A stretch of 47,609 nt of DNA from an uncultured Methanosarcinales archaeon (GTDB lineage Archaea; Nanobdellota; Nanobdellia; Woesearchaeales; CAZPJY01). Under the pieces are notes generated by a model. The model did no database searches and was not told where the DNA came from. It saw nothing but the letters and a program-made list of their open reading frames with translations. Each line of letters opens with the position of its first letter. Position 1 is the first letter of the stretch. This document shows, piece by piece, positions 1 through 17,797 of the stretch. Both the position numbers and the translations under genes were made by a program. The stretch is taken from assembly GCA_964587045.1 (NCBI GenBank), contig CAZPJY010000010.1, positions 1-47,609 of the forward strand, given 5' to 3'.

Positions 1-3000
1 TGTCCACCGACCATGTGGTTGCTGATGATGCGTGCGCTGTTTCCGCCTCCTCCTCCTCCTCCCTCGCTGTGTGTGTCGCCGGCCTGTATCAGGAGGGAGT
101 CGTTGAGCCCTCCGTTCTCGAGTATCTGCACATACGTGTCGTTTTCGATTGCTGAGGCCCAGCCTGTTCCTGTGGTGGTGCCGAAGAGATCAGATGCCGG
201 AGGTGCGACTGGGTAGGGGTCTCCGCCGTCATCTATGTACACGAGGATGGAAGTGTTTGCGAGGACCTTAATGGCAACGGGTGTCGATGAGACTCCTCCT
301 ATGTTGTTGGTGACGGCTGTTCCCGCTGCTATCTCGTTGCTTTCTAAGTATGTGAAAGTCCCATCGCCGTTACCGCCGCGGTAGATATCTATCTTGGCTG
401 CTTCGTATGGGGCATAGAAGCTGAGGTCAGGAGTGTTAGAGCGCCCGTCCGGGAATACCCATGTGTCGGTTGCGAAGGCTATGGGTACTATGGCGTCGGT
501 GTCACCGTCATTTCCTGAAGCGAAGAACGGGGCTGTTCCTGAGAGGTTGGAGTTTTGGGTGGTATCTGCCTGGGCGAACTGCGCGACGTCTGAGGTGTTG
601 AGCAGGAGGCTGTCCGTTCCGAGATCCAAAAGGATGTAATTCCCGTCCGCTGCGCTTATTATGTCTAAGTCATCGCTTGCGAGGTTGTCCTGGACGACGA
701 AAAATAACGTCTCGGGCTGGGAGTAGTTGAATACCTCCATGCGGTCGCTCTTCTTGACTGTCTCGGCGGCGTAGCCGTAATAAAGGTAGACTGTGCTCGT
801 GCTGTTGGCTAGTATCAGAGGTACCTGGGCCCAGATCCAGGTTTCTTGTCCGCCGCATCCAAATACGCTGCTGCGTTCCAGATAGAACGGGATTTCCTGG
901 TTGCTTGAGTTGACCACCCGTATGTCTGCGCAGTCCGAGCGCATCTTGCCAGAAGATATTAGCTCTGCGCTGTTTATTGTGAAGTTGATTTGGTATTCTG
1001 TGAGGTCCTGGTTGGTGTTCTCAACGATTCCAACCTCACGCCGATAGTTGTATGAGTAGTTCCACCATTCGAGGTCAGTCAGGTTCAGTACCTGCTCGGG
1101 GGCATATGCGTCCTGTTCGGTGCGCAGAATCATCGTGGCATTGACCTGCACCGCAAATGATGTGGTGTTGGTCGAAGTGAAGCCTCCAGTGTCGTTTGCG
1201 TAGATTTTGACGCCGTAGGTTACGGCCCCCCATGTGTCTGAGAAGTTGGCTTCAAAGACGCTTCCGGAAACGTTTTGCATGGTGATGTTGGTCTTCGCTC
1301 CGCTTACAGGATAGGTTATCTCGGCTATTACCATGCTGACATTGCTGACCGCGTCTGTCACGTTGGCCCTCAGCGTGACTGTTGAGTTGTGGCCTATCAC
1401 TGGAGGGATTACTGAAAGCTCCCTGACCAATGGCGGGTCGATGTCGACTGTGAAACCGCGGTAGGTTGTCGAGTTTGCGAACTTGGCGTCGCTTGCGTCC
1501 TCGCATGTCACGTTCCACCTGCGGTAGCCTGAGGTGAAGTTCCTGGTGAAGCTCTGGGTGATGTTTTGGACGACTGCGTAGTTGGGCGGGTTGCTGACGG
1601 TCCCATTGATGAATAGGCGGCAGCGGAAGATTCCTGAGCCGATGTCGGTCGTGTTGTAGTAGAAACTTACCGTGTCCGTGTTGAATAGCTGTCCGTCACC
1701 GGGCCCCTCAGCGTACACCAGAGGAGGTGTTGCGTCCAGGTATATGGTGTCGTTTGTGAGGGCCGACTCGTTGAACACGTTGTAAGCTTGGAAGAAAACA
1801 ATCTTTTGACCATCACCGGGCTGACACCCAAGTGTTGCGTTGGTCAGGTTGAAATTGAGGTACCAATTGGTTGCAGAAAGGTTGGTCCAGGCAGTCCAAG
1901 CGGTCGCGTTTGAGGTGTCGTTTTGGCATGAGAACCTGGTGTACCTTACATAGCTCCCGCCATGGTACAGGTTTGCCGCTTGGGTGGTGACTGAGACGTC
2001 GCCTCCTTCGATCTGCAACCAGGGCGCTGGCACTGGCACATCAACCCCGAAGTATCTGGTCTCGAAATCGATGATTCCTGAATTGTTGATGTACACGATG
2101 ACGTTATGAGGACCCTCTGCGAGGGGTCCAAGAGTTATCGCGAAACCTGAGACGTTGTCGTACTGGGAGCTGTTGCTTCCGAAGTCGATGCTGTACCACG
2201 TGTCGAAGCTGCCGTTGAGCGTCACGTTCAGCTTCGGGGACTCTGTGGTCTGGGTGGCGTTGGTAGGTGTCAATATTGTGATAAGGCCTGTTCCGATGTA
2301 GAACTTGACATTTTGGCTAGTGCCGAGGTTGCCGACCGTGTCGTTGCAGTAGTATGTTACGTTGTGGTAGCTGTAGACCGCAAGGTCGCTTCTGTTGTAA
2401 TAGAACGCGCTGTCGTTGATGGCGTTCATCGTGAAGTTCCATGTCTTGTCAACTTCAGCAAGGCACGTGTGTCCTGACTTGTCAAGCGTGACGTTAAACC
2501 ATATCTCTCCTGCGGTGTAGGACTTAGACTCGGGTGACAACACCTGGATGGAGGGGGGTTGGGTGATGTCTTGGACAATTATGTCATCGAAGTCCGCGAT
2601 GCCATCCCTGACATAGAACCCCACACTTCCGTTGGTGTCCCAGCCCAAGTCATCATACCCGTACATCATGGTCCAGTTGTTGGGTTCGGTGTCGGACGAG
2701 TTCCAGACCATAGCATATACTGTGACATTGGTTGAGTAGCTGCGCACCCTTATCTTGAAGCTTACCCATGTGTTGTTGGCAGGGACGAAGCCACTCCTCC
2801 TCTGTGAGGGGAGGTTGTCGAAGTCAAGGGAGCTGGATGAATCCACCTGGAATCCGTTTGTTATTCCGTTGAACCACCTGAGCCTGTAAAAATTCGCTCC
2901 TGGGCCGTCGGAATAGAATATTACTCCGAGGCCTGCTGAGCTGCTGTAGTTACCCCTCATGCGGAACTGGCCTTGGTACATGTAATCAAGCCAGCTGGTG

Positions 3001-6000
3001 GCGTTGGTTGTGTTGTACCAGGAGTAAGTCTCGTTTAGGCCTGCTGTGTCACCAGTGTACCAAACTCCTGTGCCGTTGTCGAGCGTTTCATAGTTGTCGT
3101 ATTCGGTTGGTTCTATCTGCATGTTGTGGTAGTCCTTCCAGTTGGGGGGGTCGGTGTTGTTTGCGTACGATTCGAAGTCCTCATAAAGGTAATAGCCGTA
3201 GTTGTATGCGTATGCTTCCTGGCTTCCGAAGCTGAAACTCAGCACGTGGCGGCCGAGAGTGATGATTTGGTCATCCAGCTTAGAGGGGTTCTCGCAGGTC
3301 CAGTTGAAGTACTTAATCGACTCGACCTCGAGGCTCTCCCCCGATATAGAATTGTAGGGGACTTCTGTCCCGTTGGAGAGCAAGAGATACACTTGGTCCG
3401 TCCTCGCCTCATCTCCGCAGTAAAGCGCCAGATAGACAAGGTCGTCGAAGGTGAGGGGTAGATCGTTCTCCATCTCAGCGAATGTGGTGCCCTGCGTTGG
3501 CGTGATAGTAAGTAGGTCTGTTCCTGTCGTGTTGAACCCCACGGTCCAGTTCCCGAAGAGCGATGGGGTGGACTTGACGTTAAGTATGGTAATTGAGACC
3601 TCATATGACTGGTTAGAGAGGTGTGGCACGATCCATTCTATCCTGTCTACCAGCCCGTTGCTGTTGGTGTCTAGCAGCTGGAAGTCCTTCACGGGTTGTC
3701 TTGTGCCGTTTTGCAGCCAGTAAAGCGAAACAGCATCATACGGGCTTTCCTCTATTTGGGTGAAGGCGCGGATGTTTTCGTAGTGGGTCTCGCTTGTCAC
3801 GGTGATGACTTTTCTGAATCTGCTTATCTCCTCTTCCTCCTTCTCAGGAGGTTCGGTTTCATATACCACCCAAAGCAGCTGGTCCTGGCTCAGAGCTGCT
3901 TTGATGTCAGTATCGATTGTTATGGTTGGAGATTCCTGCCTTAGTCCTGCCAAGGAAGCTATCTTGACCGCTTTCCTCTGCGCCAATCCTTCCTTCCTGG
4001 ATTCGACCCACTCCTTGGATCTTTGTCTGAAGGCCTCAAGGGAAGCGGGTTGGCCTCCCACGCGGAGCTTGACCAGGCTGTCGGGGAGCCTTTTGCCTGA
4101 GGAGTCCAGCAATGTCAAGTTTATGGTGCCATTTGGAAGGCGCAATGAGCTGGTGCTGTTAGCCTCGATGACTCTCACCCACCTAACAGGCTTGCCTATT
4201 TCAGCTTCGCCCTGCTCTGCGGCGTCTTCGGGTTTGGTGACTGGCTCTGTTTCGTTGTCCGCAGATTCTTGGGTTTGCGCCTCTATGCTTGACTCTAGGT
4301 ATTCCAGGAGGGTCTGCTTTGTAGGGTACCCTGCGACCTGCGAGACCCTCACCAGCTTGATCGCGTCGGCGACCACCAACCCTTTCGTCTTCTCGTTGCT
4401 TATCTGGAAAGTGCTCGAGCCGTTAAAGGAGTACAGGCCCAGATACTTCCATGAGGCGCCTCCCTCCTGCAGGTTAATCTCCACCTGCTCTTGCCCATCG
4501 ACATTGCTGATTGTCGCAGGAACCGAGCTTGCGAATCCAGAATCCGACGGGTGCCAGATGTAAAGCTCGTAGCTGTCCTCCTCAAGGCTGGGGGTGTACG
4601 TCACTGATTTGGCCCCCTTGCCGATGCCGAAATCATGCAGGTAATCATATCCATAGTAGCCTGGGATGAGATAATCATCGATCCACTGTCCTGATGTGGT
4701 GACCCGACTGTCCCCATTGTCTATAATATAATCTTGGGGCCAGATGATCTTCTGCGCAATTGGCAGGACGACCACGCCCGCATCTTCTGAAGCTGATTCT
4801 CCATAATATACATACAGCGATGTCTGGTCGTTGGGAAGGATGCCCTCGAGTCCGAAGAGTATGTAGCCCTGCCCTTCATTCAGCCTGCTTGAATCTACCT
4901 TGGGCTCGAAGGAGTTGAACCTCGTCCCGTCATAGAGACTGAACATTGGCCTCAGGGATGAGATATCAGTGCTGCCCAGGTTGACAGGCACCTTGACCGT
5001 GTAGATTTCACGGTTTAGATGGCGCACATCCTTCACCTGGATTATGAGCCTCCTGTTGAGGCTCTCGTCCTCCCAGACACTTGAGAAGGTCGCCTTCCTC
5101 TCATTGTTCAGCGGATTTGTATCCTTGAATGGCTGCCCCTGCTCGTCTTCGAGCCTGCCTGCCACGAACACCTTATCTGTCAGACTGAGTTCTGGCAAGG
5201 CAGGACTGACACTGATCTCGGCATCCTTCGGGACCTCTACTGGCATCCTGTCGGATCCTTTGAATAGGCTGCCTTCTGACTCAATAGCGTAGGATACGGT
5301 GAGCCAGACCTTCTTGGCGACCAGGTCGTTGTTCCTTATGACGAAGCTTGCCGTGCCGTTCTCCAGCACCACCTCGGTCAGGTCGAGATCATCATAGTTG
5401 GTCGGGATGGCCTCTTCGACGCTCTCAACAACGGTAGTTGTGTCCTTGACTTCAGAGCTCAGGTTGGCATTGTTGGAGCGGGCGGTTATGGTAGTGACAT
5501 CAGACGTGCCGGGCTCCGCGTCTGGCGGGATGTAGACCTGCGCTGTTATCCTCATCTCCTGGGCAGGGAGGAGGATGCCTGTGTCCAGCCTGCCGTCGTT
5601 GTTGTTGTCAAGGAGCTTCTGGCCGCTCTGGTCGACGAGCAGTACGGTAGAGAGGTTGGATTTTATCTCAAGCTCTATTATATCTGTCCTGTTGAGGTCG
5701 TTGTTGCTCACAATGTGTTCATACTCGACCATGTAATTCGGCGAACCCGTCCCGTTCCTGCTGGGACTGATCGTGATGGATGGTGTGGTCGCGTACTTCT
5801 TGAAGGTTGTGGCAAGCCTGTCACCCTCTGCGGTCCTTGCGATGACATAGAACCTTCCGACACCGGTTATGCTAGTTAGGTTTATTTCGCCGTCACTGTT
5901 TAGCCTGGTTGCGCCCTCTTGGTCATACACTGTGAAGTTGAGGCCTTTTGTCGGCAAGCTAAGGTTCACTCCAACGACCAAGACCCCCTTGTCCGGAGCC

Positions 6001-7817
6001 CTGCCCAGCTCATCCAGTCCGGTCAGTGTGATGGCCGTTATCTGCTCTTGCGGGTAGGTTCCGTAGTTAATCCTCGATTGGGGGAGCAGCGAGAACGCCG
6101 TGCCGTTTTGGGACATTATCGTGATGTTAAGGTCGCCTCCAGGTATGTCGAAAGTCATGAGTTCTGAGGCATTGCCTGACATCGTGAACTGCCTTTCAAG
6201 CGTTTGGGTCCCGCTTTCTATGGTCAGTATTGCCGGGACGTCGCCGCTGGCGCGGTAGATCAGGTCCACTGTGAGGTTGGTCCCTGCCGCTCCGCTGATT
6301 GAGATTCCGACCATGTCGGTGTCGTTCGCCTGCAAGTATGAGGTTTTACCTACCTGTTTGAGTAGCCCGATTAGTAAATCCTGATACAGTCTGTCATAGA
6401 AGTTGAACTCGTAATTGTCATCTGTCCAGCCTGTTGCCTGTCTGCTCCCTGACAGGATGTACCTGAGTTTCTGTCCGGCTGCGTGAGGTATTGAAACCTT
6501 GTATAGTCCAGCGGAGTTTTTCGAAGGTGACAGCACAATTTCATCTTGCCATTCCCTGAGGGAGTACTGCATCTCCTTGAAGCCAGGGGCAAGCGTCGCA
6601 TTGATGTCTATCACGCGCTGCTCGAACGCGGCCGGCACGCCTCGCATGTTTTGGGTCAGGTTGAATACCTCAGCCCCGTTTTCCTTCTTCCCCCGCGTGA
6701 GGAGGTGTCCCACCCTCAGGTAGCTGTCTGCCTGTTCGAACTCGGGGCTTTCGGGCACTATAACAGACACGCTAGGAGTGTTTGGCAGGATTACTTCTGA
6801 AACCTTCCAAAGCTCGCCATAGTAAGGATCGTACGCTAACGTCGAGTTGTCGGTGATGACTACATCCTGTCGCTTCGCTGCGGTCAGGGTTATGTAGGCC
6901 TCAGCGTAGGACCCGTCCGCGGTCAGGTACGCCCTCCCGCTGTATTCACCTGGCTCACTGACTGACAGGTTGGCATAATAATATAGTGTGGTGTAGGTGC
7001 CGGATGGCGGAAGCACTAGGGTGTCAAATGATCCGGATGGCGTCTCGATCTCGAGGTACGCAGGAGGCATGCTGGACAGAGGGGTCTTAGACACGGCTGT
7101 CAGGTTGATGGCAGCAAGATCTCCCAGGTACGCGTCAGGTGGGGACTGTATGCTCAGGTTGAGGGTGCCTGTCTGGTTGCCTTTTATGTAGAACTGTTTC
7201 TTGCTCGTATAGCCCAATCCCTTGTACTCCAAATCAGAGACCAGGAAATATCCTGACGTGTCGTATATCTGGTCGGTCACGCACTCGAACTGGCAGGGGG
7301 ACTTGCATTCTAAGTCGCACAGCGGGATCCTCTGCTTGCCGTCCAGGGTCTCGATGCTGAGGTTCAGCCAGGCTTGGTCGATGTTTAGTTCTATTCCCCC
7401 TGCGATCCTGACATAGTCACCCATCATGAAGGAGGATGGTATGGTCACTTCGGTCTCTATTACCGGAGCCTTAGCGGTGAACGATTTGGTCGCTGTCAGC
7501 TCGTCCGTGCCCATCTCAGTTACGGCTTTTACTAGGTACAAACCCTTTGATGGCGGATAATAGGTTGCTGTGTACACACCTGTGAAGGTGTTCTCAAGCG
7601 GGACCTGCTGGGTCGAGTTGTCCGGCAGGCTGATCTCCAGGTATGTCGGTACGGATAGTATTATCACATCGCCGACATATGAGCTCACGTTGATTTCTAT
7701 CGGGCTGAGTATCTCAACCGCTTGGCTGGATAGGTTCAGTCTCACATTTAGGGTTTCTTCTGAGCTTATAGCAGGCAAGAGCAGGAGGATCATGAGGGTA
7801 AGGATTGCGGCCCTCAT
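1..7817 (-). CDS. Giant secreted multidomain surface protein (>2,605 aa, 3' end beyond the window): Ig-like, Golvesin/Xly-CBD-like, lectin-like and DUF2341-like domains
   Basis: Manual translation from ATG at 7817 (preceded by AGGGGTG) gives signal peptide MRAAILTLMILLLLPAISS and stays open to position 1. Motifs: YIDNGDS..PGYYGYDYLHD..VVADAIKLV (about 4350-4730); DTNSNGLVDRIEWIVPHLSNQ (about 3610-3670); EDFESY..ADFDDIIV (about 2575-3190); WWNYSYNYRRE..GKMRSDCADIRVV..VYLYYG (about 770-1070). Many N-x-S/T sequons. Confidence 0.9.
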   Translation of the reverse strand, partial: MRAAILTLMILLLLPAISSEETLNVRLNLSSQAVEILSPIEINVSSYVGDVIILSVPTYLEISLPDNSTQQVPLENTFTGVYTATYYPPSKGLYLVKAVTEMGTDELTATKSFTAKAPVIETEVTIPSSFMMGDYVRIAGGIELNIDQAWLNLSIETLDGKQRIPLCDLECKSPCQFECVTDQIYDTSGYFLVSDLEYKGLGYTSKKQFYIKGNQTGTLNLSIQSPPDAYLGDLAAINLTAVSKTPLSSMPPAYLEIETPSGSFDTLVLPPSGTYTTLYYYANLSVSEPGEYSGRAYLTADGSYAEAYITLTAAKRQDVVITDNSTLAYDPYYGELWKVSEVILPNTPSVSVIVPESPEFEQADSYLRVGHLLTRGKKENGAEVFNLTQNMRGVPAAFEQRVIDINATLAPGFKEMQYSLREWQDEIVLSPSKNSAGLYKVSIPHAAGQKLRYILSGSRQATGWTDDNYEFNFYDRLYQDLLIGLLKQVGKTSYLQANDTDMVGISISGAAGTNLTVDLIYRASGDVPAILTIESGTQTLERQFTMSGNASELMTFDIPGGDLNITIMSQNGTAFSLLPQSRINYGTYPQEQITAITLTGLDELGRAPDKGVLVVGVNLSLPTKGLNFTVYDQEGATRLNSDGEINLTSITGVGRFYVIARTAEGDRLATTFKKYATTPSITISPSRNGTGSPNYMVEYEHIVSNNDLNRTDIIELEIKSNLSTVLLVDQSGQKLLDNNNDGRLDTGILLPAQEMRITAQVYIPPDAEPGTSDVTTITARSNNANLSSEVKDTTTVVESVEEAIPTNYDDLDLTEVVLENGTASFVIRNNDLVAKKVWLTVSYAIESEGSLFKGSDRMPVEVPKDAEISVSPALPELSLTDKVFVAGRLEDEQGQPFKDTNPLNNERKATFSSVWEDESLNRRLIIQVKDVRHLNREIYTVKVPVNLGSTDISSLRPMFSLYDGTRFNSFEPKVDSSRLNEGQGYILFGLEGILPNDQTSLYVYYGESASEDAGVVVLPIAQKIIWPQDYIIDNGDSRVTTSGQWIDDYLIPGYYGYDYLHDFGIGKGAKSVTYTPSLEEDSYELYIWHPSDSGFASSVPATISNVDGQEQVEINLQEGGASWKYLGLYSFNGSSTFQISNEKTKGLVVADAIKLVRVSQVAGYPTKQTLLEYLESSIEAQTQESADNETEPVTKPEDAAEQGEAEIGKPVRWVRVIEANSTSSLRLPNGTINLTLLDSSGKRLPDSLVKLRVGGQPASLEAFRQRSKEWVESRKEGLAQRKAVKIASLAGLRQESPTITIDTDIKAALSQDQLLWVVYETEPPEKEEEEISRFRKVITVTSETHYENIRAFTQIEESPYDAVSLYWLQNGTRQPVKDFQLLDTNSNGLVDRIEWIVPHLSNQSYEVSITILNVKSTPSLFGNWTVGFNTTGTDLLTITPTQGTTFAEMENDLPLTFDDLVYLALYCGDEARTDQVYLLLSNGTEVPYNSISGESLEVESIKYFNWTCENPSKLDDQIITLGRHVLSFSFGSQEAYAYNYGYYLYEDFESYANNTDPPNWKDYHNMQIEPTEYDNYETLDNGTGVWYTGDTAGLNETYSWYNTTNATSWLDYMYQGQFRMRGNYSSSAGLGVIFYSDGPGANFYRLRWFNGITNGFQVDSSSSLDFDNLPSQRRSGFVPANNTWVSFKIRVRSYSTNVTVYAMVWNSSDTEPNNWTMMYGYDDLGWDTNGSVGFYVRDGIADFDDIIVQDITQPPSIQVLSPESKSYTAGEIWFNVTLDKSGHTCLAEVDKTWNFTMNAINDSAFYYNRSDLAVYSYHNVTYYCNDTVGNLGTSQNVKFYIGTGLITILTPTNATQTTESPKLNVTLNGSFDTWYSIDFGSNSSQYDNVSGFAITLGPLAEGPHNVIVYINNSGIIDFETRYFGVDVPVPAPWLQIEGGDVSVTTQAANLYHGGSYVRYTRFSCQNDTSNATAWTAWTNLSATNWYLNFNLTNATLGCQPGDGQKIVFFQAYNVFNESALTNDTIYLDATPPLVYAEGPGDGQLFNTDTVSFYYNTTDIGSGIFRCRLFINGTVSNPPNYAVVQNITQSFTRNFTSGYRRWNVTCEDASDAKFANSTTYRGFTVDIDPPLVRELSVIPPVIGHNSTVTLRANVTDAVSNVSMVIAEITYPVSGAKTNITMQNVSGSVFEANFSDTWGAVTYGVKIYANDTGGFTSTNTTSFAVQVNATMILRTEQDAYAPEQVLNLTDLEWWNYSYNYRREVGIVENTNQDLTEYQINFTINSAELISSGKMRSDCADIRVVNSSNQEIPFYLERSSVFGCGGQETWIWAQVPLILANSTSTVYLYYGYAAETVKKSDRMEVFNYSQPETLFFVVQDNLASDDLDIISAADGNYILLDLGTDSLLLNTSDVAQFAQADTTQNSNLSGTAPFFASGNDGDTDAIVPIAFATDTWVFPDGRSNTPDLSFYAPYEAAKIDIYRGGNGDGTFTYLESNEIAAGTAVTNNIGGVSSTPVAIKVLANTSILVYIDDGGDPYPVAPPASDLFGTTTGTGWASAIENDTYVQILENGGLNDSLLIQAGDTHSEGGGGGGGNSARIISNHMVGG

Positions 7818-7855
7818 CACCCCTTTTTCTCCATCCTTTCCGAACTGAGATCCTA

Positions 7856-8452
7856 TCATGTGTCTCCTAAAAAGCGTCTGTAGATCTTTTTCTCCTCCTG
7901 TGTCTCCAATGATGATATTACCTGTATCAGGCGAGTGTGCTTGAGTCCTACCTGTGCTTCGATTGCGGAGATGGGCACTCCTTTTTGGTAGGCGTGAATT
8001 ATGTGGGTGTATCTGAAGGTTTGGGGGAAGGCCTTATACTCCAGGTGGATTTTGGACAGGTAGATCATGACCAGCTGCCGGATCCTTTTGGTGGTCATCT
8101 GGGCTGACTGTCTCGTGTCGAAGATGTAGGAGGTCGGCTTTTTGTCCTTGCAGAACCGTTCTATTCTCTTGGCGAGGCTCTTGGAGATGTAGCAGTGCCT
8201 TTCTTCCCTGTACTTGTTGCCTTCTGACCTTATGTGTGCTGTGGCCTCTTTTGGGTCCAGGTCGCTAACCTTGACGTTGACAAGCTCGTTGACAGTGCAT
8301 CCGCTTTCGTAGAGGAAATCGAGAATGAGACGGTCGCGTTCGGGTGCGGACAGGCTGTCTATGGCCTTCTTTTCTGCTGTGGTAAAGTAAGGGAGGGGTG
8401 CTCCGCTAGGCTTGACTTTGCTCTTGCCCTTCCCTTTCTCCCTCGGCATCAC
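7856..8452 (-). CDS. Tyrosine recombinase (Xer/integrase) catalytic-domain-only protein with degenerate active site
   Basis: Box I RDRLILDFLYESGCTVNELVNVKVSDLD, hairpin GNKYREERHCYI, box II PQTFRYTH..GVPISAIEAQVGLKHTRLIQVI. Start is GTG 8452 or ATG 8449. Confidence 0.85.
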   Translation of the reverse strand: MMPREKGKGKSKVKPSGAPLPYFTTAEKKAIDSLSAPERDRLILDFLYESGCTVNELVNVKVSDLDPKEATAHIRSEGNKYREERHCYISKSLAKRIERFCKDKKPTSYIFDTRQSAQMTTKRIRQLVMIYLSKIHLEYKAFPQTFRYTHIIHAYQKGVPISAIEAQVGLKHTRLIQVISSLETQEEKKIYRRFLGDT

Positions 8453-8478
8453 TATCTCTCGTCAGCATCGGGCAAGCA

Positions 8479-8506
8479 GTTTCCCTTTTCTGAATTAAAG
8501 GGAATC
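8479..8506. promoter_or_regulatory. 28-bp dyad site 1 (11-6-11): GTTTCCCTTTT-CTGAAT-TAAAGGGAATC
   Basis: Imperfect inverted arms around a 6-bp spacer, read directly; lies 27-54 bp upstream of the recombinase-like gene start. Confidence 0.7.
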
Positions 8507-8598
8507 TTAATGTCAGCCATTTTTAGATGGTCGACTTTGCCTTCCACTACATCTCTCGGCTATAAATCGGGAATCAATATTTCATATACTGAAATACA

Positions 8599-8626
8599 GT
8601 TTCCCTTTTATGAACCATTAGGAAAC
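8599..8626. promoter_or_regulatory. 28-bp dyad site 2 (11-6-11): GTTTCCCTTTT-ATGAAC-CATTAGGAAAC
   Basis: Same left arm as site 1, exactly 120 bp downstream of it. Confidence 0.7.
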
Positions 8627-8711
8627 ATGGTTTTTTGGAGCTCCCACACATCCCATGAAGACAAAACCGGCCTGATGACGCGAAGATCCAGCCATTTGCC
8701 CTGAGGACCAT

Positions 8712-8739
8712 GTTTCTAATTTCTGTAAAAAAGGGAAAC
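8712..8739. promoter_or_regulatory. 28-bp dyad site 3 (11-6-11), inverted: GTTTCTAATTT-CTGTAA-AAAAGGGAAAC
   Basis: Right arm is the exact reverse complement of GTTTCCCTTTT. Inner 10-mers GAAACATGGT (8622-8631) and ACCATGTTTC (8707-8716) are perfect inverted repeats. Confidence 0.7.
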
Positions 8740-8848
8740 TGCTATATATACTTTTTGGTGATAACCAAAGGGCGTTGCAATTGAGGGCAGGATTTAAGTC
8801 CTACTCTTGGGTGGGCACATACTCTCCTCGGAAATGGAAAATGATAAT

Positions 8849-8864
8849 CGAAAGGTTTATATAC
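8849..8864 (+). promoter_or_regulatory. Archaeal BRE-TATA promoter of the first archaellin
   Basis: CGAAAGGTTTATATAC about 30-45 bp upstream of ATG 8893; similar elements near 11976, 16592, 18727 and 19895. Confidence 0.65.
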
Positions 8865-8892
8865 TTTATAGCTGAATATTAGCATCAAGAAA

Positions 8893-9870
8893 ATGCTCAA
8901 ATGGGTTCGAAGGAATAGAAGGGCGTTAATGGGTATAGGAACCCTTATCATCTTCATAGCGACTATTCTGGTCGCTGCTGTTGCGGCGGGTGTTCTGATA
9001 TCGACCTCCAATGTCTTGCAGCAGAGAGCACTCCTGACAGGACAGGAGGTGCGAAAGCGCGTCACCAACAGTATTCAGGTGATATCTATTCTCGCAGGTG
9101 GCAACTCCACTTCTGAGGAAATAAATGACTTCGAGATACTCATAAGGCTTGAGGCAGGCTCTGATCCCGTGCAGATGAAGAAGTTTGATATCCAGTGGAT
9201 ATCTCCCCAGCATGATGCTGCTGCCAGCCTCCAAGATCCAGAGCTCGATACAACCTTCATTACGATTGGGCTCGTTTCCAACAATTCCTATACCAACTTC
9301 GGAGACCTTGATGATGACGGCAGGACTGATAGCGTCACCATCATAACCCCTTACTCCAGCACATGCTGTGGGTGGAACAGCACGGACGACGACGCCCTGC
9401 AGTTCAACATTTCAGGCTATGGAATCTCAGATCCTGTCGACCTCGGCTATGACCTCTCGACCGGTTCGAATGTGACTTTCAGTCCACCTACCTATGAGGA
9501 GGCGATTGTGACCAGCGACGGCCATGTGTTGGGGTTCGTAACTGTCGATGGCTACTCAGGCACAACGGCCAATCAGCTGGATGCCTCTGCCAACATCACC
9601 ATCAAGAGATTCCCTGACATATGCGACTTCGACCATGTCATACCTGAGGACTATTACTGCGTTGAGGTAATGCACGGCAACACTGACACGGTCCTTGATT
9701 CAGGAGAGAGGTTCAAGCTTATTTACAAGGTTCTACCAGCAAATGTTCTCGGAATCAATGAGGAGTTCCAGTTCATATTCACGGCTGAGAAAGGCAGGTT
9801 GTCTGAGGTCAGAGCGAGGACGCCTGATGTAATCGTTACAAGGAAGGTCAGCCTCTGGCCGCTTGGATAA
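8893..9870 (+). CDS. flaB: Archaellin (ArlB/FlaB), divergent paralog
   Basis: Class III signal peptide [34 protein letters not shown] motif, C-terminal RTPDVI. Confidence 0.92.
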   Translation: MLKWVRRNRRALMGIGTLIIFIATILVAAVAAGVLISTSNVLQQRALLTGQEVRKRVTNSIQVISILAGGNSTSEEINDFEILIRLEAGSDPVQMKKFDIQWISPQHDAAASLQDPELDTTFITIGLVSNNSYTNFGDLDDDGRTDSVTIITPYSSTCCGWNSTDDDALQFNISGYGISDPVDLGYDLSTGSNVTFSPPTYEEAIVTSDGHVLGFVTVDGYSGTTANQLDASANITIKRFPDICDFDHVIPEDYYCVEVMHGNTDTVLDSGERFKLIYKVLPANVLGINEEFQFIFTAEKGRLSEVRARTPDVIVTRKVSLWPLG

Positions 9871-9954: not shown

Positions 9955-11331
9955 ATGGCTGATGAGACCCCGGAAAAGAATTCTGACCATTACGATGAGC
10001 TGAACCAGGCCATCGGCAAGATTCAGGATGCCGCCAAGAAAAACCGAGAGGGGAAGGCGTCAGAACCAGAGCAACCAAAGGAAGGTGCTGAGCCACCCAA
10101 GGAAGGGCCTGGTAAAGCAACTCCAAAAGAAGGCAGCGGGCAGCCAGCAGAAACACCCAAAGAGGAGGCCCCACCCGTGGGAAAGGAGGAGCCTAAGGCT
10201 GAGCCTGAAGGTAAGGCTGAAAAGGAACCCGGACCCACAATAGCAGAGGCTGAAAAAACCAAAGCATCCCTGTTTGATGACAAGAAGTTCGACGGGCTAA
10301 AGGACCTAAAAGAGAAGGAGCTGACTCCATCCAGCGAGGTTGTAAAAACAGAGGGTGCAACCCGGACTGACCCGGCACTGGCTGAGGGAGAGAGCAACAT
10401 TGTTGCACCCCAGCGCAACGAGCCGGATGAGAGGATGCTCAACCTGATACTTGAGCAGATCAAGGAATTAATTTCAATCGATGATGACCTCAACAAGAAG
10501 ATAAAAGAGATCAATGACAAGATTACCAAGGAGGCAACAGGAGCGCACGAGACCAAGCGCAAGGTTGAGGGTTTCGATGAGAGGATAAGCCTCATCGAGA
10601 AGAACATGCAGAGGTTCATGGCCCTGTACGAGGTCGTGACCGACCAGTTCAACCCCTTCTCTGCAAGCTCTGATGAGGATAGTCCTGGAGTGCCCCGCAT
10701 GGAGGAAAGGTTGGAAAAGGAAGGCCTGGGTCCAGCCGTCAAGGAGGACGACATAATGGCTTCGTTCATGACTCGGCCGCCTCCACAGATGCCGCCCCCG
10801 CAACCGCCACCTCAACCGTGGGGCTACCCTCCCCAGTATCCTTACCCGCAACAGCAGGGAATCTCGCAGGAGAGCCTCATGTGGCTGTACAAGCAATTAA
10901 GGGAGGACAACAGGCGCTTCCTGCAGCAGATGACCGGGAGGAGGCCAACACTTCCCAGGCAGAAGGCTGCTTCTGCACCGCCTGATGAGACTTCAGCCAA
11001 GCTGGCCAAGGTAAAATCAGCCCTGACCCAAGCAGGGGTCTATGAGGGCCTGCCGGTTTCTACGAAGGCAAGGGACCTGATTAGGAATGTGCCTGAGGAT
11101 CAGGTCTTCAGGACGGCTGACGGCAAGGTCGCAAGGAACCTGCTCGAACTGCTTGACATCATCGCTGTCAGCCCAGACGAATTCTTCAAGGCGCACATAA
11201 ATGACGAACGCAACGACGTCGCTGAGTGGATTGAAGGAACTTACAAGGACCATGAGCTTGCTGCAAAGATCAGGTCGATAAATTCCAAAGAACAGCTTCT
11301 GCTCCTCTTAGAAGGCAAGCTGAAAGGTTAG
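9955..11331 (+). CDS. ArlC/FlaC-like archaellum accessory protein with low-complexity N-terminus and C-terminal DUF5752-like domain
   Basis: Coiled coil ending IEKNMQRFMALYEVVTDQFNPF (ArlC-type motif); P/Q-rich linker; C-terminal VPEDQVFRTADGKVARNLLEL..HINDERNDVAEWI. Confidence 0.7.
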   Translation: MADETPEKNSDHYDELNQAIGKIQDAAKKNREGKASEPEQPKEGAEPPKEGPGKATPKEGSGQPAETPKEEAPPVGKEEPKAEPEGKAEKEPGPTIAEAEKTKASLFDDKKFDGLKDLKEKELTPSSEVVKTEGATRTDPALAEGESNIVAPQRNEPDERMLNLILEQIKELISIDDDLNKKIKEINDKITKEATGAHETKRKVEGFDERISLIEKNMQRFMALYEVVTDQFNPFSASSDEDSPGVPRMEERLEKEGLGPAVKEDDIMASFMTRPPPQMPPPQPPPQPWGYPPQYPYPQQQGISQESLMWLYKQLREDNRRFLQQMTGRRPTLPRQKAASAPPDETSAKLAKVKSALTQAGVYEGLPVSTKARDLIRNVPEDQVFRTADGKVARNLLELLDIIAVSPDEFFKAHINDERNDVAEWIEGTYKDHELAAKIRSINSKEQLLLLLEGKLKG

Positions 11332-11334
11332 GAT

Positions 11335-11934
11335 TCACTTCCTGGCCCTATAAAGCACCTTCTTTTCGAACGGCACTTCCTTGAACAGGTCTGAGAACGC
11401 CCGGGTGAGTGGCGATTCCCAGTGCTCGAGCAAGCTTTCGATCTCATCTACAGGTATTTTGGTTGCGGCGCTGATTTCCTGGGGTGTGAAGTACTCGCCT
11501 GCCTTGTTGCTGAGGAATGAAATAATCTGGTCAGACTTCTTGGTGTCAATCCAAAAACCCTTTGACAAGAACTTGTTTACGGCCCTCCTGACAGTCGGGT
11601 TCCTGCTCACAAAGATGACTGATGGGGTGATGATGCGCTGCTTGTTGCCGGCATATGACATTTGAGTCTCTATCAGTCCTGCGTCCTGGAGCTTGTTGAT
11701 GTTTTCGTGGATGGTCGAGGAGGAGTGTCCGATTTTTTCCTTGACCCGTGACGGGGTGGTGTTGCCCTCCATGGTGAGGACCTTCATTATCTCGCGGGGG
11801 ATCAGCTGGGACCAGAGTTCTATGATTTTCGCCTTAAGCTCTGGGTCTGTTGAAGGGGGATAGATATCGAGGATGGTGTTGCTGCCCTCATCATAGTAGG
11901 CGATATTTTCCATTAGCTTGACTTTGGCCAGCAT
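11335..11934 (-). CDS. Winged-helix (ArsR-like) transcriptional regulator, probably with a second C-terminal wHTH
   Basis: TPSRVKEKIGHSSSTIHENINKLQDAGLIET and FTPQEISAATKIPVDEIESLL; divergent from the arlF/G-H-I-J genes. Confidence 0.8.
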   Translation of the reverse strand: MLAKVKLMENIAYYDEGSNTILDIYPPSTDPELKAKIIELWSQLIPREIMKVLTMEGNTTPSRVKEKIGHSSSTIHENINKLQDAGLIETQMSYAGNKQRIITPSVIFVSRNPTVRRAVNKFLSKGFWIDTKKSDQIISFLSNKAGEYFTPQEISAATKIPVDEIESLLEHWESPLTRAFSDLFKEVPFEKKVLYRARK

Positions 11935-11956
11935 CCTATTTAAACGTTTTGATTTA

Positions 11957-11971
11957 TTCGGAAAAACCGAA
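11957..11971. promoter_or_regulatory. Palindrome TTCGG-N5-CCGAA next to a BRE-TATA
   Basis: Perfect 5-bp inverted repeat between the divergent regulator and the arlF/G gene, just upstream of CGAAAGGTATATATA. Confidence 0.45.
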
Positions 11972-12040
11972 AAACCGAAAGGTATATATATTAGTATTCA
12001 AATATGTATACTGGTAGAGTTAAATAGTTAGGGAGGCACA

Positions 12041-12505
12041 ATGGGATTCGGCACAATAGTGGCTCAGATCATCATGTTCATTTCGATAATCAGCCTAGCC
12101 ACTGGGATGGTCATGGTCTTCAAGAACTACGTCGACGACTCATCCGGCTCCCTCAACGAGCAGATGCAGTCGACATCCAACCGCATCCGGACTGATATCA
12201 CCATAACCAACGTTAATTTCGACAACACGACCAACCACACCACGCTCAATGTCCTCAACACAGGCAAGACCTCCCTAAACACAGACTACATCGATGTGTA
12301 CCTGGACAGGATGATGATACCGAGGAACACGACTTACAGGAACATCACCGTCGAGCCCAGCACGGAGGTGAAGAACACAGGGATATGGGACCCAAACGAG
12401 GTCCTTGAGATAGTGGTGCTCGACCACTACCTTGACAAGGACGACCACTCGGTCGATGTGATAACGGAGTATGGGACAGGAGACACGGAGACCTTCTCCG
12501 TTTAG
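12041..12505 (+). CDS. Archaellum stator protein, ArlF/ArlG (FlaF/FlaG) family
   Basis: N-terminal TM MGFGTIVAQIIMFISIISLATG, VLNTGKTSL, IDVYLD, WDPNEVLEI; directly upstream of arlH. Confidence 0.85.
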   Translation: MGFGTIVAQIIMFISIISLATGMVMVFKNYVDDSSGSLNEQMQSTSNRIRTDITITNVNFDNTTNHTTLNVLNTGKTSLNTDYIDVYLDRMMIPRNTTYRNITVEPSTEVKNTGIWDPNEVLEIVVLDHYLDKDDHSVDVITEYGTGDTETFSV

Positions 12506-12516
12506 GGGGTGAGCTA

Positions 12517-13215
12517 ATGACAGAACTGCGATCGATAGTGCTTCGGAGGGACGAGCTCAACAGGAGCATAGGAGGAGGCCTGCCGACAAAGTCGCTCATC
12601 CTAATCGAGGGCAAGGACGGGGCAGGCAAGAGCATCCTCGTGCAGCGTCTTGCCTTCGGCCTGTTGCAGAACAACGTCAAGGTAACATACATATCGACAG
12701 AGCTGACGACCCAGGACTTCATCGAGCAGATGATATCCCTGGACTACGACATCAAGTACCACCTCCTGGAAGACAAGCTGCTTTTCCTGCCCATGTTCCC
12801 CTTCCTGGGAAATGTCACGCTCAGGGAGAACTTCATGGACAGGCTCCTTCACACCCCCAAGATATTCGAAAAGGAAGTGATAATCTTTGACACACTATCC
12901 TTCCTGCTGATAAACGACTCCATGCCTGACGACAAAAGCTTTGAGATCATAAGGATATTCAAGAAGCTCACGAGTTCGGGCAAAACCATCATAGTCAACG
13001 TAGACCCCGACCACTTAAATTCACGCCTCCTCACCTTGCTCAGGGCGGTCTCAGATGTCTACTTCAGCGTTGAGGTCAAGACGTTTGCGGGCGCCCTGGT
13101 CAGGGTCATCAACGTTCTCAGATTCAAGAGGCCCGGGGAAAACGTGCTTTCCGCAATACCATTCAAGGTGGAGACAGGCAAGGGCCTGGCAATAGAGATA
13201 GCATCATTCAGCTGA
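12517..13215 (+). CDS. flaH: Archaellum KaiC-like ATP-binding protein ArlH
   Basis: ELNRSIGGGLP, Walker A GKDGAGKS, YISTELT, IIFDTLS, FKVETGKGLAIEI. Confidence 0.95.
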   Translation: MTELRSIVLRRDELNRSIGGGLPTKSLILIEGKDGAGKSILVQRLAFGLLQNNVKVTYISTELTTQDFIEQMISLDYDIKYHLLEDKLLFLPMFPFLGNVTLRENFMDRLLHTPKIFEKEVIIFDTLSFLLINDSMPDDKSFEIIRIFKKLTSSGKTIIVNVDPDHLNSRLLTLLRAVSDVYFSVEVKTFAGALVRVINVLRFKRPGENVLSAIPFKVETGKGLAIEIASFS

Positions 13216-13221
13216 TGACGC

Positions 13222-14862
13222 ATGAGGAAGAAGCCACCAGTAACCAAGACCTTGAACCAGGCGATGGTCAAATTCCCCCACATGAGGAAGTATTTGGCCA
13301 AGGTCCGCCGTGAGATCGGCGAGCCGGAGTACCATGTGACCCTCGATCGGGAGATGGGGAAGATCGATTATCCTAACATCATCTACCCGGTCGGAGATCC
13401 GCTCTTCATCCATATCTTCCGCAAGAAGGGCATGCCCATTATGTACCATGTGATCGAGCCTGAGATGGATGAGGAGACGCAGGCCATCAACCAAAAGATC
13501 ATGGACCGCATGATAGAGATAGCTCACCGCCTGCCTGTGCCTGACAAGATAGAGGACGCAAGCGAGATACTGCTCAACATAATGGACCAGGTTGTGGAGG
13601 TCTCTGAGAAGAAGAGTTTCCTAGCCGAGGCCTTGTCGGGCAGCTCCAAGCTGCACGTGACGCAGAAGCAGTACGACATCATCAAGTACTTCCTCTTGAG
13701 GAACCGCGTCGGATTCCACAAGCTCGAACCCATGTTCAACGACCCCTACTTGGAGGATATCCACTGCACAGGCGTAGGCACGCTGACCGCCATCCACAAG
13801 GTGTTCAAGGCCATCCACACCAACATAGAGTTCAGAAACGACCTGGAGCTGAACAAGTACATCCTCGAGACCAGCGAGCGTGTGGAGAGGCCTGTTTCAG
13901 ACGCCCATTCGGTGGTGGATGCGATGATGCCTGACGGGTCTCGTGTGAACTTCATATACGGCAGGGAGATATCGCTGGAAGGCTCGAGCTTCACAGTGCG
14001 AAAGTTCTCTGAAGTGCCGGTGTCAATCACCCAGATCATCAAGTGGGGGACCATGAGCTCAGAGCTCGCAGCCTACATATGGCTCGCGCTCGAGAACGGC
14101 ATGAACATGTTCGTGTGCGGCGAGACCGCTTCGGGGAAGACCACTTCACTCAACGCGTGCTGCGTGTTCATCAAGCCCGACTCCAAGATATACAGCGTGG
14201 AGAACACTCCCGAGGTTACCATGCCCCACGACACCTGGCAGCACCTGATAACGCGCGAGGCTGGAAAAGCAACTGATGTCACCATGTTCGACCTGCTGAT
14301 AGCGGCGTTGCGAAGCCGTCCCAACTACATCATAGTAGGAGAGATAAGGGGTGCGGAAGGAAACGTGGCGTTCCAGGCCATGCAGACCGGCCACCCTGTC
14401 GTCAGCACCTTCCACGCCGGCAGCCCGCACTCCATGATCCAGCGTCTCACAGGCCACCCCATCGACGTGCCGATAGCGTTCATCGACAACCTGAATATCG
14501 TGCTCATCCAGCAGGCTGTGTCGGTCGAAGGCCACCTTGTCAGGCGTGTCCTGTCGGTGACAGAGATAGAGCGGTACTACGACCTTGAGAAGAAGGTCAT
14601 TACCAGGCAGGTTTTCGGCTGGGACCCAGTGAACGATGAGCAGCGCTTCCGCGGCCTTTACAACAGCTACATACTTGAGAAGAAGATCGCCACGATGAAA
14701 GGGCTGGAGGACACGCGTGACATCTACGGCGAGCTGGAGACCAGGAGGAAGATCCTGGACGCGATGGTCGAGCACAAGATCTTCAACTACTATGACGTAT
14801 GGGAAATTATCAAGAAGTTCTACTCTGAAGGCTTGGAAGGTCTGCCGTTCGAGGTATCATGA
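13222..14862 (+). CDS. flaI: Archaellum motor ATPase ArlI
   Basis: YPVGDPLFIHI, DPYLEDIHCTG, GETASGKTT, LRSRPNYIIVGEIRG, AFQAMQTGH. Confidence 0.96.
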   Translation: MRKKPPVTKTLNQAMVKFPHMRKYLAKVRREIGEPEYHVTLDREMGKIDYPNIIYPVGDPLFIHIFRKKGMPIMYHVIEPEMDEETQAINQKIMDRMIEIAHRLPVPDKIEDASEILLNIMDQVVEVSEKKSFLAEALSGSSKLHVTQKQYDIIKYFLLRNRVGFHKLEPMFNDPYLEDIHCTGVGTLTAIHKVFKAIHTNIEFRNDLELNKYILETSERVERPVSDAHSVVDAMMPDGSRVNFIYGREISLEGSSFTVRKFSEVPVSITQIIKWGTMSSELAAYIWLALENGMNMFVCGETASGKTTSLNACCVFIKPDSKIYSVENTPEVTMPHDTWQHLITREAGKATDVTMFDLLIAALRSRPNYIIVGEIRGAEGNVAFQAMQTGHPVVSTFHAGSPHSMIQRLTGHPIDVPIAFIDNLNIVLIQQAVSVEGHLVRRVLSVTEIERYYDLEKKVITRQVFGWDPVNDEQRFRGLYNSYILEKKIATMKGLEDTRDIYGELETRRKILDAMVEHKIFNYYDVWEIIKKFYSEGLEGLPFEVS

Positions 14863-16532
14863 TGGAGAAGGCCATAGGATCCCTGGGTTTTGAGAGCGTG
14901 AACGAGTTCTTCCTCAAGCTGGCTCTCCCGGTATTCGTTCTGTGCCTGGGTCTTTTCTTCGTGACGCTCACCCTGCTGCAGCTGCCCCCGTTCGTATCGT
15001 ACGTGTTCCTACTGGCCGGAATCGGCTTTGTCTTCGGCTATCCCTACATCATGTTCGAGCGAAAGAAGGTAAACATCCACGAAAACATCCACCTGTTCAT
15101 AACATACGCAGGGACCATATCGACTGTCCACCTCAACAGAGCGATGTTCTTCAAGAGGATCTCCAGCGGGGAGAAGTACGGCGAGATATCCAAGGCCGCG
15201 GAAAAGATACTCTACCTGGCCAAGGCATGGAACCTCGGGTTTGCGAAGACCTGCAGGAAGATTGCCCGCTACAGCCCATCGCACATATTTGCGGATTTCC
15301 TGGACAGGTTCGCGGCAGTCCTCGATTTCGGCGAGGACCTGGAGGTCTTCCTCATGACTGAGCAGGATGCTGTCATGGACGACTATGAGAACGAGTACAA
15401 GCAGTCCCTCCAAAACATCGGCATGCTCAGGGAGGTGTTCATCGCGATGACCATCTCGATCGCATTTGCGATGTCGGCCGCGCTGCTGCTCCCCCTTATC
15501 ATGGGTATATCAATCATCGTGGTGGTGAAGTACTGCCTGCTGGGGCTGCTTATTACTGACGGCATACTAATAACCTTGATCAAGGGATTCATCCCCAGCG
15601 ACAGGATCTGCTCGAGCCTCAAGATCAAGGATGAGGGCACCAAGAAGATCTACAAGACCTTATACATCGTTTTCCCGATAAGCGTAGGTCTCCTGCTGGG
15701 CATGCTGTACATCAACAAGCTCCCCTTCCTGATAAACCTCGCAATAGGGATAACCCCCCTGGTGGTCGTCGGCATCTACGCTGTGCAGGAAGAGGAGGCG
15801 GTCTTCAAGAGGGACCGGGCCTTTCCGGCCTTCATCAGGGCGCTCGGCGGCACGATAGAGGTCAGGCAGGGTGGCGTCATCTCCAGCATCGGGGCCTTGC
15901 GCGTGCACGACTTCGGAGCCCTGAACGAGATGATGATTCATCTATACAGGCGGCTTAGGCTGGGCAGCGAGCGCTTCAAGTCCTGGATGTACTTTGCGGC
16001 TGAGACAGGGAGCAACCTGATCAACTACTTCATACACATCTTCGCAGAGTCGGTGTACCTTGGCGGCAACGCGGAGAAGGTGGGGCAGATCATCAGCAAG
16101 AACTTCATGCGCCTTCTTTCCATGAGGAAGCTGAGGCTCCAGCTGGCCTCGGGCCTGAGGGGCGCCCTTTACGGAGCGCTCGTGGGCTTCACGGCGACCA
16201 TCTACCTCAGCACTTCCATCACCTCATTGCTAACCAGGATGTTCACGGACGCGATGTCAGCCTCGCAGATTGAGGGCTCGATGGGAGGGCTGGTCGAGGC
16301 GGTCCTTCCTGCGATGCCTGCTGTCAACATGGTCACTGTCGACCTTTATATGGGTATAATGATTATCATCCACGCCTTCGTCTCGGCCATGATTCTCAAG
16401 CTCGTGGACGGCGGCAATAAGTTCGCTTCCCTGTTCGACTTCACTCTTATGATATGGATAGGCGCAGTGCTAAGCTGGGTGATTCCGCGCATGGCATTTT
16501 CGATGTTTGGCCCCATGCTCGGAGGTGCGTGA
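14859..16532 (+). CDS. flaJ: Archaellum platform membrane protein ArlJ
   Basis: Polytopic membrane protein overlapping arlI (ATGA); FADFLDRFA, FPAFIRALG, HDFGAL, ETGSNLI, VDGG. Confidence 0.95.
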   Translation: MMEKAIGSLGFESVNEFFLKLALPVFVLCLGLFFVTLTLLQLPPFVSYVFLLAGIGFVFGYPYIMFERKKVNIHENIHLFITYAGTISTVHLNRAMFFKRISSGEKYGEISKAAEKILYLAKAWNLGFAKTCRKIARYSPSHIFADFLDRFAAVLDFGEDLEVFLMTEQDAVMDDYENEYKQSLQNIGMLREVFIAMTISIAFAMSAALLLPLIMGISIIVVVKYCLLGLLITDGILITLIKGFIPSDRICSSLKIKDEGTKKIYKTLYIVFPISVGLLLGMLYINKLPFLINLAIGITPLVVVGIYAVQEEEAVFKRDRAFPAFIRALGGTIEVRQGGVISSIGALRVHDFGALNEMMIHLYRRLRLGSERFKSWMYFAAETGSNLINYFIHIFAESVYLGGNAEKVGQIISKNFMRLLSMRKLRLQLASGLRGALYGALVGFTATIYLSTSITSLLTRMFTDAMSASQIEGSMGGLVEAVLPAMPAVNMVTVDLYMGIMIIIHAFVSAMILKLVDGGNKFASLFDFTLMIWIGAVLSWVIPRMAFSMFGPMLGGA

Positions 16533-16688
16533 GCATGGATTATAGAGGAGAGTTTTCACCCGGGTTTTGTAGTGAATATATAAAGGAAACAGAAAAGTTT
16601 ATATATTACCGATACTGATATACGGTATTGTATATTAAATGTGGGAATAGTAACCATAATTCGCCTTAATAATTGCAGAGGTGCTAAC

Positions 16689-17612: not shown

Positions 17613-17618
17613 AACCCA

Positions 17619-17647
17619 TTTTTTTCTTTTTCCCACTCCTTTTTCTT
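17619..17647 (+). terminator. Oligo-T archaeal terminator
   Basis: T-tracts right after the archaellin stop codon. Confidence 0.5.
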
Positions 17648-17797
17648 CAGGGGCAAGCAAGGGTTCCCTGACAAAATTCCCCTTTGGGCAGATGGTTGGG
17701 CTGTGCAATCCTCCTTCCTTTTCCAAAAAATATTTAAACAACTGCTCTCATAAATTAATCTACCTAGTCATAGATTAATAGGGGAGGTGGCTTTTCA

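Follow-up and report, generated by a model that had tools for sequence, protein, structure and literature searches.

What is the function of a tyrosine-recombinase-like protein that seems unable to cut DNA and is encoded between a giant surface-protein gene and an archaellum cluster? This question is raised by the window analysed here, a stretch of 47,609 nucleotides (positions 1 to 47,609 of the forward strand of contig CAZPJY010000010.1, assembly GCA_964587045.1) from a presumably host-dependent archaeon of the order Woesearchaeales. The gene in question (7856..8449, minus strand), here called the dead recombinase gene, encodes a 197-aa putative DNA-binding regulator of the tyrosine-recombinase fold that consists of the catalytic domain only. 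It precedes, on the same strand, a gene for a giant secreted or surface protein of at least 2619 aa (3..7859, alternative start at 7817) that is open at the contig end, and it is divergent from the archaellin gene arlB1 (8893..9870, plus strand) across an intergenic region of 440 bp (8453-8892). An earlier note on this DNA had proposed that a domesticated, non-cutting recombinase binds or loops three dyads in this region, and thereby regulates itself and coordinates attachment with motility. From sequence comparisons across the order, we consider it probable that the gene, passed on by vertical descent, encodes a transcription factor derived from a recombinase, which keeps its own operon repressed and controls a few further genes as a small regulon.

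The open frame comprises 201 aa, of which 197 aa are read from the ATG and 198 aa from a GTG at 8452. Pfam Phage_integrase (PF00589) is the sole domain match (residues 31-173; 59 bits against a cut-off of 27.1); PF22823 (MrpR_C_cat) is listed among the precomputed domains of the protein and was not reported by our own Pfam scan at E 0.01. The predicted model (predicted local distance difference test, pLDDT, 90.7) has the archaeal XerA structures 5hxy and 4a8e as its top fold matches, with a Foldseek template-modelling score of 0.74 to 5hxy. The match of the protein to the NCBIfam XerA model (NF040815) begins no earlier than profile position 103 and, at 81.6 bits, stays below the cut-off of 220; both this coverage and the length of the protein indicate that the N-terminal core-binding domain is absent. 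The NCBIfam 'tyrosine-type DNA invertase' models (198-200 positions) gave no match. A dimer prediction with two copies (alignment A1) scored 0.22 against a mark of 0.42 and was used neither way.

When compared with XerA, the window protein retains only the second Arg of the catalytic set, and the loss extends to all 44 close homologues used for residue counts, none of which keeps more than two of the five residues R, H, R, H/W and Y. The first Arg is replaced by Thr in 44/44 and the His of HxxR by Gln in 42/44, whereas the second Arg is kept in all; the His/Trp is kept in none and the Tyr in three. The position of the catalytic Lys is ambiguous, being Lys in the window protein and Arg in 37 of the 44. 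Residues R113, Q114, K121, R122 and Q125 are invariant throughout the set, and a helix with the motif TTKRxRQ, together with an RQ loop, is nearly invariant in the family. The view of the earlier note that this is a domesticated, non-cutting recombinase is borne out by these losses as well as by the tree described below.

Single-domain members (at least 150 bits) were found in 27 of 400 sampled genomes of the order, belonging to nine families; genome G135 had been dropped beforehand, and one of the 27 was left out of later counts. Among 50%-identity representatives, 205 proteins were retrieved at E <=1e-10, the best 150 of which include many single-domain and tandem two-domain forms. In a quick tree, a branch with a Shimodaira-Hasegawa-like approximate likelihood ratio (SH-aLRT) support of 96 separates 56 dead rows from the rest, and members of families f30, f46 and f67 and most of f133 cluster by host family, so that vertical descent fits. 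The nearest rows outside this branch are recombinases that also consist of the catalytic domain only and have an intact catalytic set. Five proteins with a full or nearly full set (P0121, P0150, P0175, P0105 and P0167) are the nearest kin of the dead family; they share its size and several of its motifs but keep R, H, R, H and Y. A joint loss of the N-terminal domain and of catalysis was rejected, since these nearest relatives without that domain keep the catalytic set. The copy in G135 (locus L070), which lacks the first Arg and also precedes a long open reading frame (ORF), groups with the intact catalytic-domain-only recombinases and was therefore dropped as a carrier. Viral contigs yielded no full-length relative: alignment A1 gave a single match of 40 residues (E 5e-4), and P0121 as query gave none. 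A search of the ESM Atlas returned only generic integrase clusters. Several rows titled 'uncultured Methanosarcinales' (L003, L007-L010, L015 and L016) nest among Woesearchaeota rows, and their titles are probably wrong; the sequence of L016 is identical to a genome of this order.

The family also contains tandem two-domain dead forms (P0045, P0047 and P0049; L105:5819-6859, L106:6002-7000 and L107:14321-15328), which likewise precede giant secreted genes and have a TATA box plus dyad site upstream, and in G208 a two-domain and a single-domain locus follow each other in a row. A further variant is represented by P0108 and P0195, which come from different sources, are 68% identical over 749 aa and combine a dead domain with a transmembrane segment and an extracellular part. 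The C-terminal 250 aa of this part recur commonly at the ends of large proteins of the order. When residues 1-165 of P0108 served as the query, one fused form other than P0108 itself was obtained, whereas no fused form was seen among 8000 candidates in a weak search with alignment A2, or among 401 genomes.

The giant protein of the window has a signal-peptide-like hydrophobic N-terminus, Golvesin_C and DUF2341 domains and 91 N-glycosylation sequons; its relatives reach more than 3300 aa, with laminin-G, FG-GAP or Ig domains, and the large partner proteins across the loci contain laminin-G, FG-GAP, Ig-like, MG2, Golvesin_C or DUF2341 domains, which suggest a role in adhesion. The next same-strand ORF begins with a hydrophobic segment, and thus appears to be secreted, in 42 of 46 evaluable non-redundant loci, and the order and orientation of the two genes are identical in all loci, which supports a coupling of the recombinase gene to the giant surface-protein gene. 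The exceptions are L011, where a YhcG nuclease gene is inserted ahead of the giant gene, L036, L074 and L084. Within the DNA fetched, 33 partner ORFs are 400 aa long or longer, 17 reach 2000 aa or more, and six are closed ORFs of 215-382 aa. In L023, L063, L065, L073 and L077 the place of the giant protein is taken by a short secreted one (215-231 aa); that of L023, the only one tested, has no Pfam match.

As to the junction in the window, the ATG at 7817 is preceded by a GGTG ribosome-binding motif and leaves a gap of 38 bp to the recombinase gene, the distance given in the earlier note, whereas an alternative in-frame ATG at 7859 overlaps the recombinase stop codon (ATGA). An overlap of this kind (-4) is seen more often in the family than any other arrangement (19 of 47 loci), so that either ATG may be the true start. 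No overlapping contig end that would continue the giant gene was found. Other very long frames, of 8507, 7789 and 5644 codons, occur in the window genome (G000; C1:1-25521, C1:25768-49134 and C13:1-16932, respectively), none of which could be joined to the giant gene of the window contig (C10). In L009 (10542-20534) the giant gene is split into two frames (583 aa and at least 2808 aa), either by a frameshift or by an assembly error, and it is continuous in the close relative L012.

The intergenic region of the window contains three dyads of 11-6-11 geometry. Site 1 (8479..8506; 28.1 bits), located 29 nt before the recombinase ATG, and site 2 (8599..8626; 23.7 bits) lie in the putative 5' leader, and site 3 (8712..8739; 24.0 bits), in the opposite orientation, starts 3 nt behind the predicted operon TATA box (8743-8750, with the transcription factor B recognition element, BRE, at 8751-8758; minus strand), which is a repressor position; the same promoter layout is found in homologous loci. 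The arms are unequal, one being strong and one weak. These scores derive from a matrix of 46 homologous upstream regions that was seeded from the window sites and takes its final counts from the homologues only. Sites 1, 2 and 3 rank 1, 4 and 3 among the 13 hits of at least 12 bits in the 1.6-Mb genome, and none of 5000 shuffles of the intergenic region reached 23.7 bits, so that the three dyads are real.

Homologous loci share the dyad. With the full matrix, a site of at least 12 bits is present in 41 of 45 loci (one site in 27, two to five in 14), and in 31 of the 45 a site starts 1-7 nt behind the TATA-like box of the recombinase gene, compared with 7% of random positions, a placement that fits autoregulation. 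In leave-one-out scoring, 36 of the 46 upstream regions come out above the highest of 18 active-Xer controls, where the 46 still include G135/L070 and one duplicate (L072 = L021). The 18 controls are partly coding sequence, and the control was repeated on 38 true upstream regions of active Xer genes, which gave a median of 4.65 and a maximum of 13.1 bits. Spacers of 6 and of 7 bp both occur in the family, the outer bases of the dyad are the most conserved and the inner bases form an A/T tract. The two-domain loci G334 and G397 each have two copies of the TATA-plus-site arrangement before the giant gene. Five to six direct repeats of ~76-88 nt, each with a dyad, are found upstream of the dead gene in L011 (1-440) and L027 (920-1370).

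The same geometry might instead reflect recombination sites of an active Xer in the same cell, which would invert the promoter or move a cassette, with the dead protein as an accessory or a relic. The inverted position of site 3 relative to sites 1 and 2, with the promoter outside site 3, and the presence of two intact Xer-type genes in the genome would suit this reading, and active xerA genes of the order carry a similarly spaced dif-like dyad behind their own TATA box. However, a pair of Xer-type sites with matching spacers was not found, as the three spacers of the window differ from one another, the family-wide spacer varies and most loci have one site only. Moreover, no locus departs from the constant arrangement of recombinase and giant gene, remote sites occur at housekeeping promoters and within a coding region, and in genomes with both elements the dif-like site of xerA differs from the dyad and scores low on its matrix. 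Two DNA sequencing runs yielded short low-depth contigs with no joints, but these leave the intergenic region mostly uncovered and weigh neither for nor against inversion; no RNA run was listed as a holder of the sequence. We regard the dyads as very improbable recombination sites.

The dif-like dyads of active xerA genes lie directly behind the TATA box in seven of 19 loci read by eye, and in three more among 20. Loci L040, L042, L043, L044, L046, L049, L055, L156, L157 and L162 form one active-xerA clade with a dif/loxP-like 11-6-11 dyad at this position, and L051, L053, L056, L163, L165, L167 and L168 form a second clade with a different dif-like site further upstream. This arrangement suggests that XerA regulates itself through its own site. 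As these dyads have the spacing of the dead-family dyad but differ from it in the arms, even within one genome, the layout may be ancestral, with specificity having diverged, and a path from recombinase to transcription factor is suggested because active xerA genes of the order already carry such a site.

How would the dead protein act on its dyad? Two protomers, or one two-domain protein, may bind it via the TTKRxRQ helix and read the outer part of each arm. For XerH, outer-arm reading by a helix of the catalytic domain is described in the accessible text of PMC5241119, and this fits a dyad with conserved outer bases and A/T-tract inner bases. A protein bound behind the TATA box could block recruitment of the polymerase, and the resulting negative feedback would cap the expression of a very costly surface protein. 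TrmBL1 of P. furiosus, according to the available sections of PMC4706686, acts as a repressor when bound downstream of the TATA box and as an activator when bound upstream of it; by this position rule the TATA-adjacent dyad would be the site of autorepression. The three copies in the window, one promoter-proximal and two in the leader, most likely tighten repression. Looping between them, which the earlier note had also considered, is dispensable because 27 of the 45 loci have a single site.

The dyad is not confined to the operon. A pattern search of 16 carrier genomes gave matches in 15, many of them distant from the locus, and 20 were read. The gene for a presenilin-like protease (PF06550) has an upstream site of 22.6-28.8 bits in seven of 29 carrier-genome rows, compared with none above 14.5 bits in 26 rows from non-carriers (two short rows dropped); for six of the seven sites the distance to the start is 45-63 nt, and these precede the TATA box. 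In L023 the presenilin-like gene itself lies two genes downstream of the dead recombinase. An M24 peptidase gene, which mostly has an M16 peptidase gene as its divergent neighbour, contains a site inside its 5' coding part. The pattern search gave this site in five carriers. Of 29 loci taken without selection (one dropped), the only one to have it is that of the single carrier genome, with 25.7 bits against at most 15.6 bits in the others, and in each of six carriers 0-1.1% of 3000 synonymous recodings score at least as high as the real sequence. The divergent promoter of the SAMP-TtuA and zinc-finger genes carries a site in the window genome (C31:20968, 26.5 bits) and in G003, and further sites are found at a radical-SAM gene in two genomes and a proteasome ATPase gene in one. 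A weak site in the window genome (C41:3244, 18.3 bits) overlaps the start of a thioredoxin-reductase-like ORF.

At the remote promoters, 13-30 nt separate the end of the site from the TATA box downstream of it, which is the position of an archaeal activator, and the same protein therefore probably activates there. In some lineages it would thus act on the presenilin-like protease, SAMP-TtuA and peptidase genes. A small regulon beyond the own operon is likely, with loose limits, given that the carriers sharing these sites are related and that most of the sites were found by pattern.

Could another regulator bind the dyad, or the dyad be a promoter element or RNA hairpin, with the dead recombinase serving a purpose other than transcription, for example to tether DNA to the anchor of the surface protein? 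The membrane-fused P0108 and P0195 would also suit tethering. However, no other DNA-binding gene consistently adjoins the dead recombinase gene across the loci, and all six genomes with at least two strict-pattern hits, among 401 and with the window genome included, are carriers. A single hit upstream of arlG in the non-carrier G029, one of 12 single hits, was treated as chance. As for a hairpin, arm complementarity is poor at several positions although the primary sequence is conserved (0.29-0.98 per position), sites occur in both orientations, and some precede the TATA box and would thus lie outside the transcript. Taken together, we consider such a division of labour improbable.

Several points nevertheless weigh against a recombinase-derived repressor with a regulon. 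The link between protein and dyad is one of guilt by association, and the promoter elements are predictions. Ten of the 46 leave-one-out scores fail to beat the active-Xer controls, four of the 45 loci have no site of at least 12 bits and 14 have no TATA-adjacent site. In XerH, the base-specific contacts are mostly made by the N-terminal domain, as far as the accessible text of PMC5241119 describes them, and this domain is absent from the dead family. The regulon is labile, since 22 of the 29 presenilin rows in carriers, including that of the window genome, have no site, and the SAMP-TtuA site of the window genome is seen in one other genome (G003) and is missing from G402. Furthermore, five of six M24 and five of seven presenilin sites were found by pattern, and the carriers that share them are related and thus not independent.

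A bolder version would make the protein a master regulator of host attachment in Woesearchaeota-type archaea, which represses the giant operon and activates the presenilin-like protease, protein-turnover genes and, in the lineage with the divergent arrangement, arlB1, with the membrane-fused forms as sensors released by that protease. A presenilin-like protease in the regulon allows such release by intramembrane cleavage. We hold this extended scheme to be doubtful; if true, it would amount to a circuit of regulated intramembrane proteolysis built from a recombinase, with a real stick-or-swim switch in the divergent lineage.

The question of motility arises from the other side of the intergenic region. 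The predicted BRE/TATA of arlB1 (8849..8863, plus strand) lies 108 bp from site 3, and its motif is conserved in 15 divergent loci. The archaellum cluster (9955..16532, plus strand), identified by Pfam families with Arl names assigned from domain and order, comprises ArlC/D/E-like (9955-11331), ArlG-like (12041-12505), ArlH-like KaiC ATPase (12517-13215), ArlI-like ATPase (13222-14862) and ArlJ-like (14859-16532) genes. Between the arlC/D/E-like and arlG-like genes, on the minus strand, lies a gene for a winged helix-turn-helix protein (11335..11934; Pfam). Two further archaellin genes follow the cluster (16641..18709, plus strand), and they have no dyad site upstream (6.6 and 3.1 bits).

In the stick-or-swim proposal, the dead recombinase represses the adhesin operon and controls the archaellum from the shared region, possibly by looping the three sites. 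Of 42 evaluable loci, 20 have an archaellin gene no more than 1.5 kb upstream (13 divergent, seven tandem), and the other 22 have none adjacent. The association with motility is also visible at the genome level, where arlJ is present in 18 of 26 carriers against 41 of 373 non-carriers, and in seven of nine families against 21 of 126, although kin are not independent in these counts; yet arlJ was not found in eight of the 26 carriers, and 41 of the 59 arlJ genomes have no single-domain member of at least 150 bits. At the promoter itself, a site lies 29-30 bp upstream of the arlB BRE in five of the 15 divergent loci, in the same orientation as at the presenilin promoter, and two of these loci have retained a site at a distance of 30 or 40 bp from that BRE even though their start-proximal site is ~300 bp further away. 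There is a precedent in TrmBL1, which controls one divergent pair in opposite senses (PMC4706686, in the sections available). However, among the divergent loci the nearest site can be as close to the arlB promoter as 29 bp or as far away as 337 bp, and in the tandem loci that were checked the site lies after arlB rather than before it.

Further evidence against stick-or-swim comes from archaellum genes elsewhere in the carriers, which do not show the pattern of an EarA-like archaellum regulator. No site was found at 50 non-adjacent archaellin-like genes of 10 carriers (maximum 9.4 bits, one short row dropped), among them the relocated arlB1 orthologue of G413, and none of at least 16 bits in 17 arlJ regions of carrier genomes. 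The matrix used for these scans gives most weight to the close clade, and variants particular to a family may escape it. The winged helix-turn-helix gene has a homologue inside 18 of 37 arlJ regions of the order and is a better candidate archaellum regulator than the dead recombinase. Thus, coordination of attachment and motility is not a general rule, and we judge a stick-or-swim switch to be unlikely; any effect of the dead recombinase on arlB1 would be local and lineage-specific.

Which known system does the dead family resemble most? FimB/FimE-type invertases are active enzymes that invert a promoter between two sites. The dead protein resembles them in its size of ~200 aa, in having the catalytic domain only and in lying next to genes with a probable adhesion function, but it has lost the catalytic set, and most loci have one site. 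XerA, with its dif site of two arms and a 6-bp spacer (PDB 4a8e, 5hxy; NF040815), is the best match in sequence and fold, and differs in an intact N-terminal domain, intact catalytic residues and a different arm sequence; moreover, the intact Xer genes are separate in the genome. Regulators of the TrmBL1 type share, by position, the palindromic site behind the TATA box when repressing and upstream of it when activating, and apparently an autoregulated small regulon (accessible text of PMC4706686), whereas they are helix-turn-helix proteins and the dead family has a recombinase fold without an obvious ligand-binding domain.

The closest parallel in use is provided by MrpR (YopR) and SroF, master repressors of Bacillus SPbeta-like prophages (PMC10516654; bioRxiv 10.1101/2025.11.27.690993; PDB 9rd5, 9rgl; sources available in part), which share the recombinase fold with a degenerate catalytic site. 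The likeness extends to the use as a repressor and to DNA reading by a helix of the catalytic domain, both of which are probable here, and to an A-tract-rich site; for MrpR, no recombination was seen, according to the accessible text of PMC10516654. Unlike the dead family, SroF is a two-domain phage protein (core-binding and catalytic) of ~320 aa that, in the parts of these reports available, binds a 26-bp box as a monomer, and MrpR keeps the Lys and Tyr, whereas the archaeal family is mostly without the Tyr. The dead family is chromosomal and archaeal, consists of the catalytic domain only or a tandem of two, has a dyad as its site and precedes surface-protein genes. It would therefore work like MrpR/SroF but is not a member of that family by architecture and setting.

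The repurposing of a recombinase as a repressor has thus already been described for Bacillus phages, and the dead family would be a chromosomal archaeal case. In the literature searched, from which subscription journals were mostly outside the scope, we found no report of a chromosomal archaeal repurposed tyrosine recombinase. The accessible parts of papers on archaeal tyrosine recombinases (PMC8371274), recruited mobile-element genes (PMC8987985), recombinase subgroups (PMC8138268) and giant genes (bioRxiv 10.1101/2023.11.21.568195) mention no such family. For the giant surface proteins of uncultured archaea with small genomes, the family offers a putative regulator, a candidate operator and candidate targets.

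Two observations lie apart from this system. In the window, an ORF for ribosomal protein L11 (20251-21036, 261 aa) has a C-terminus that extends ~80 aa beyond the archaeal model, and an ORF for an MCM helicase of 1136 aa in L001 (3361-6771) contains, as read from the sequence, an apparent intein in the Walker A region.

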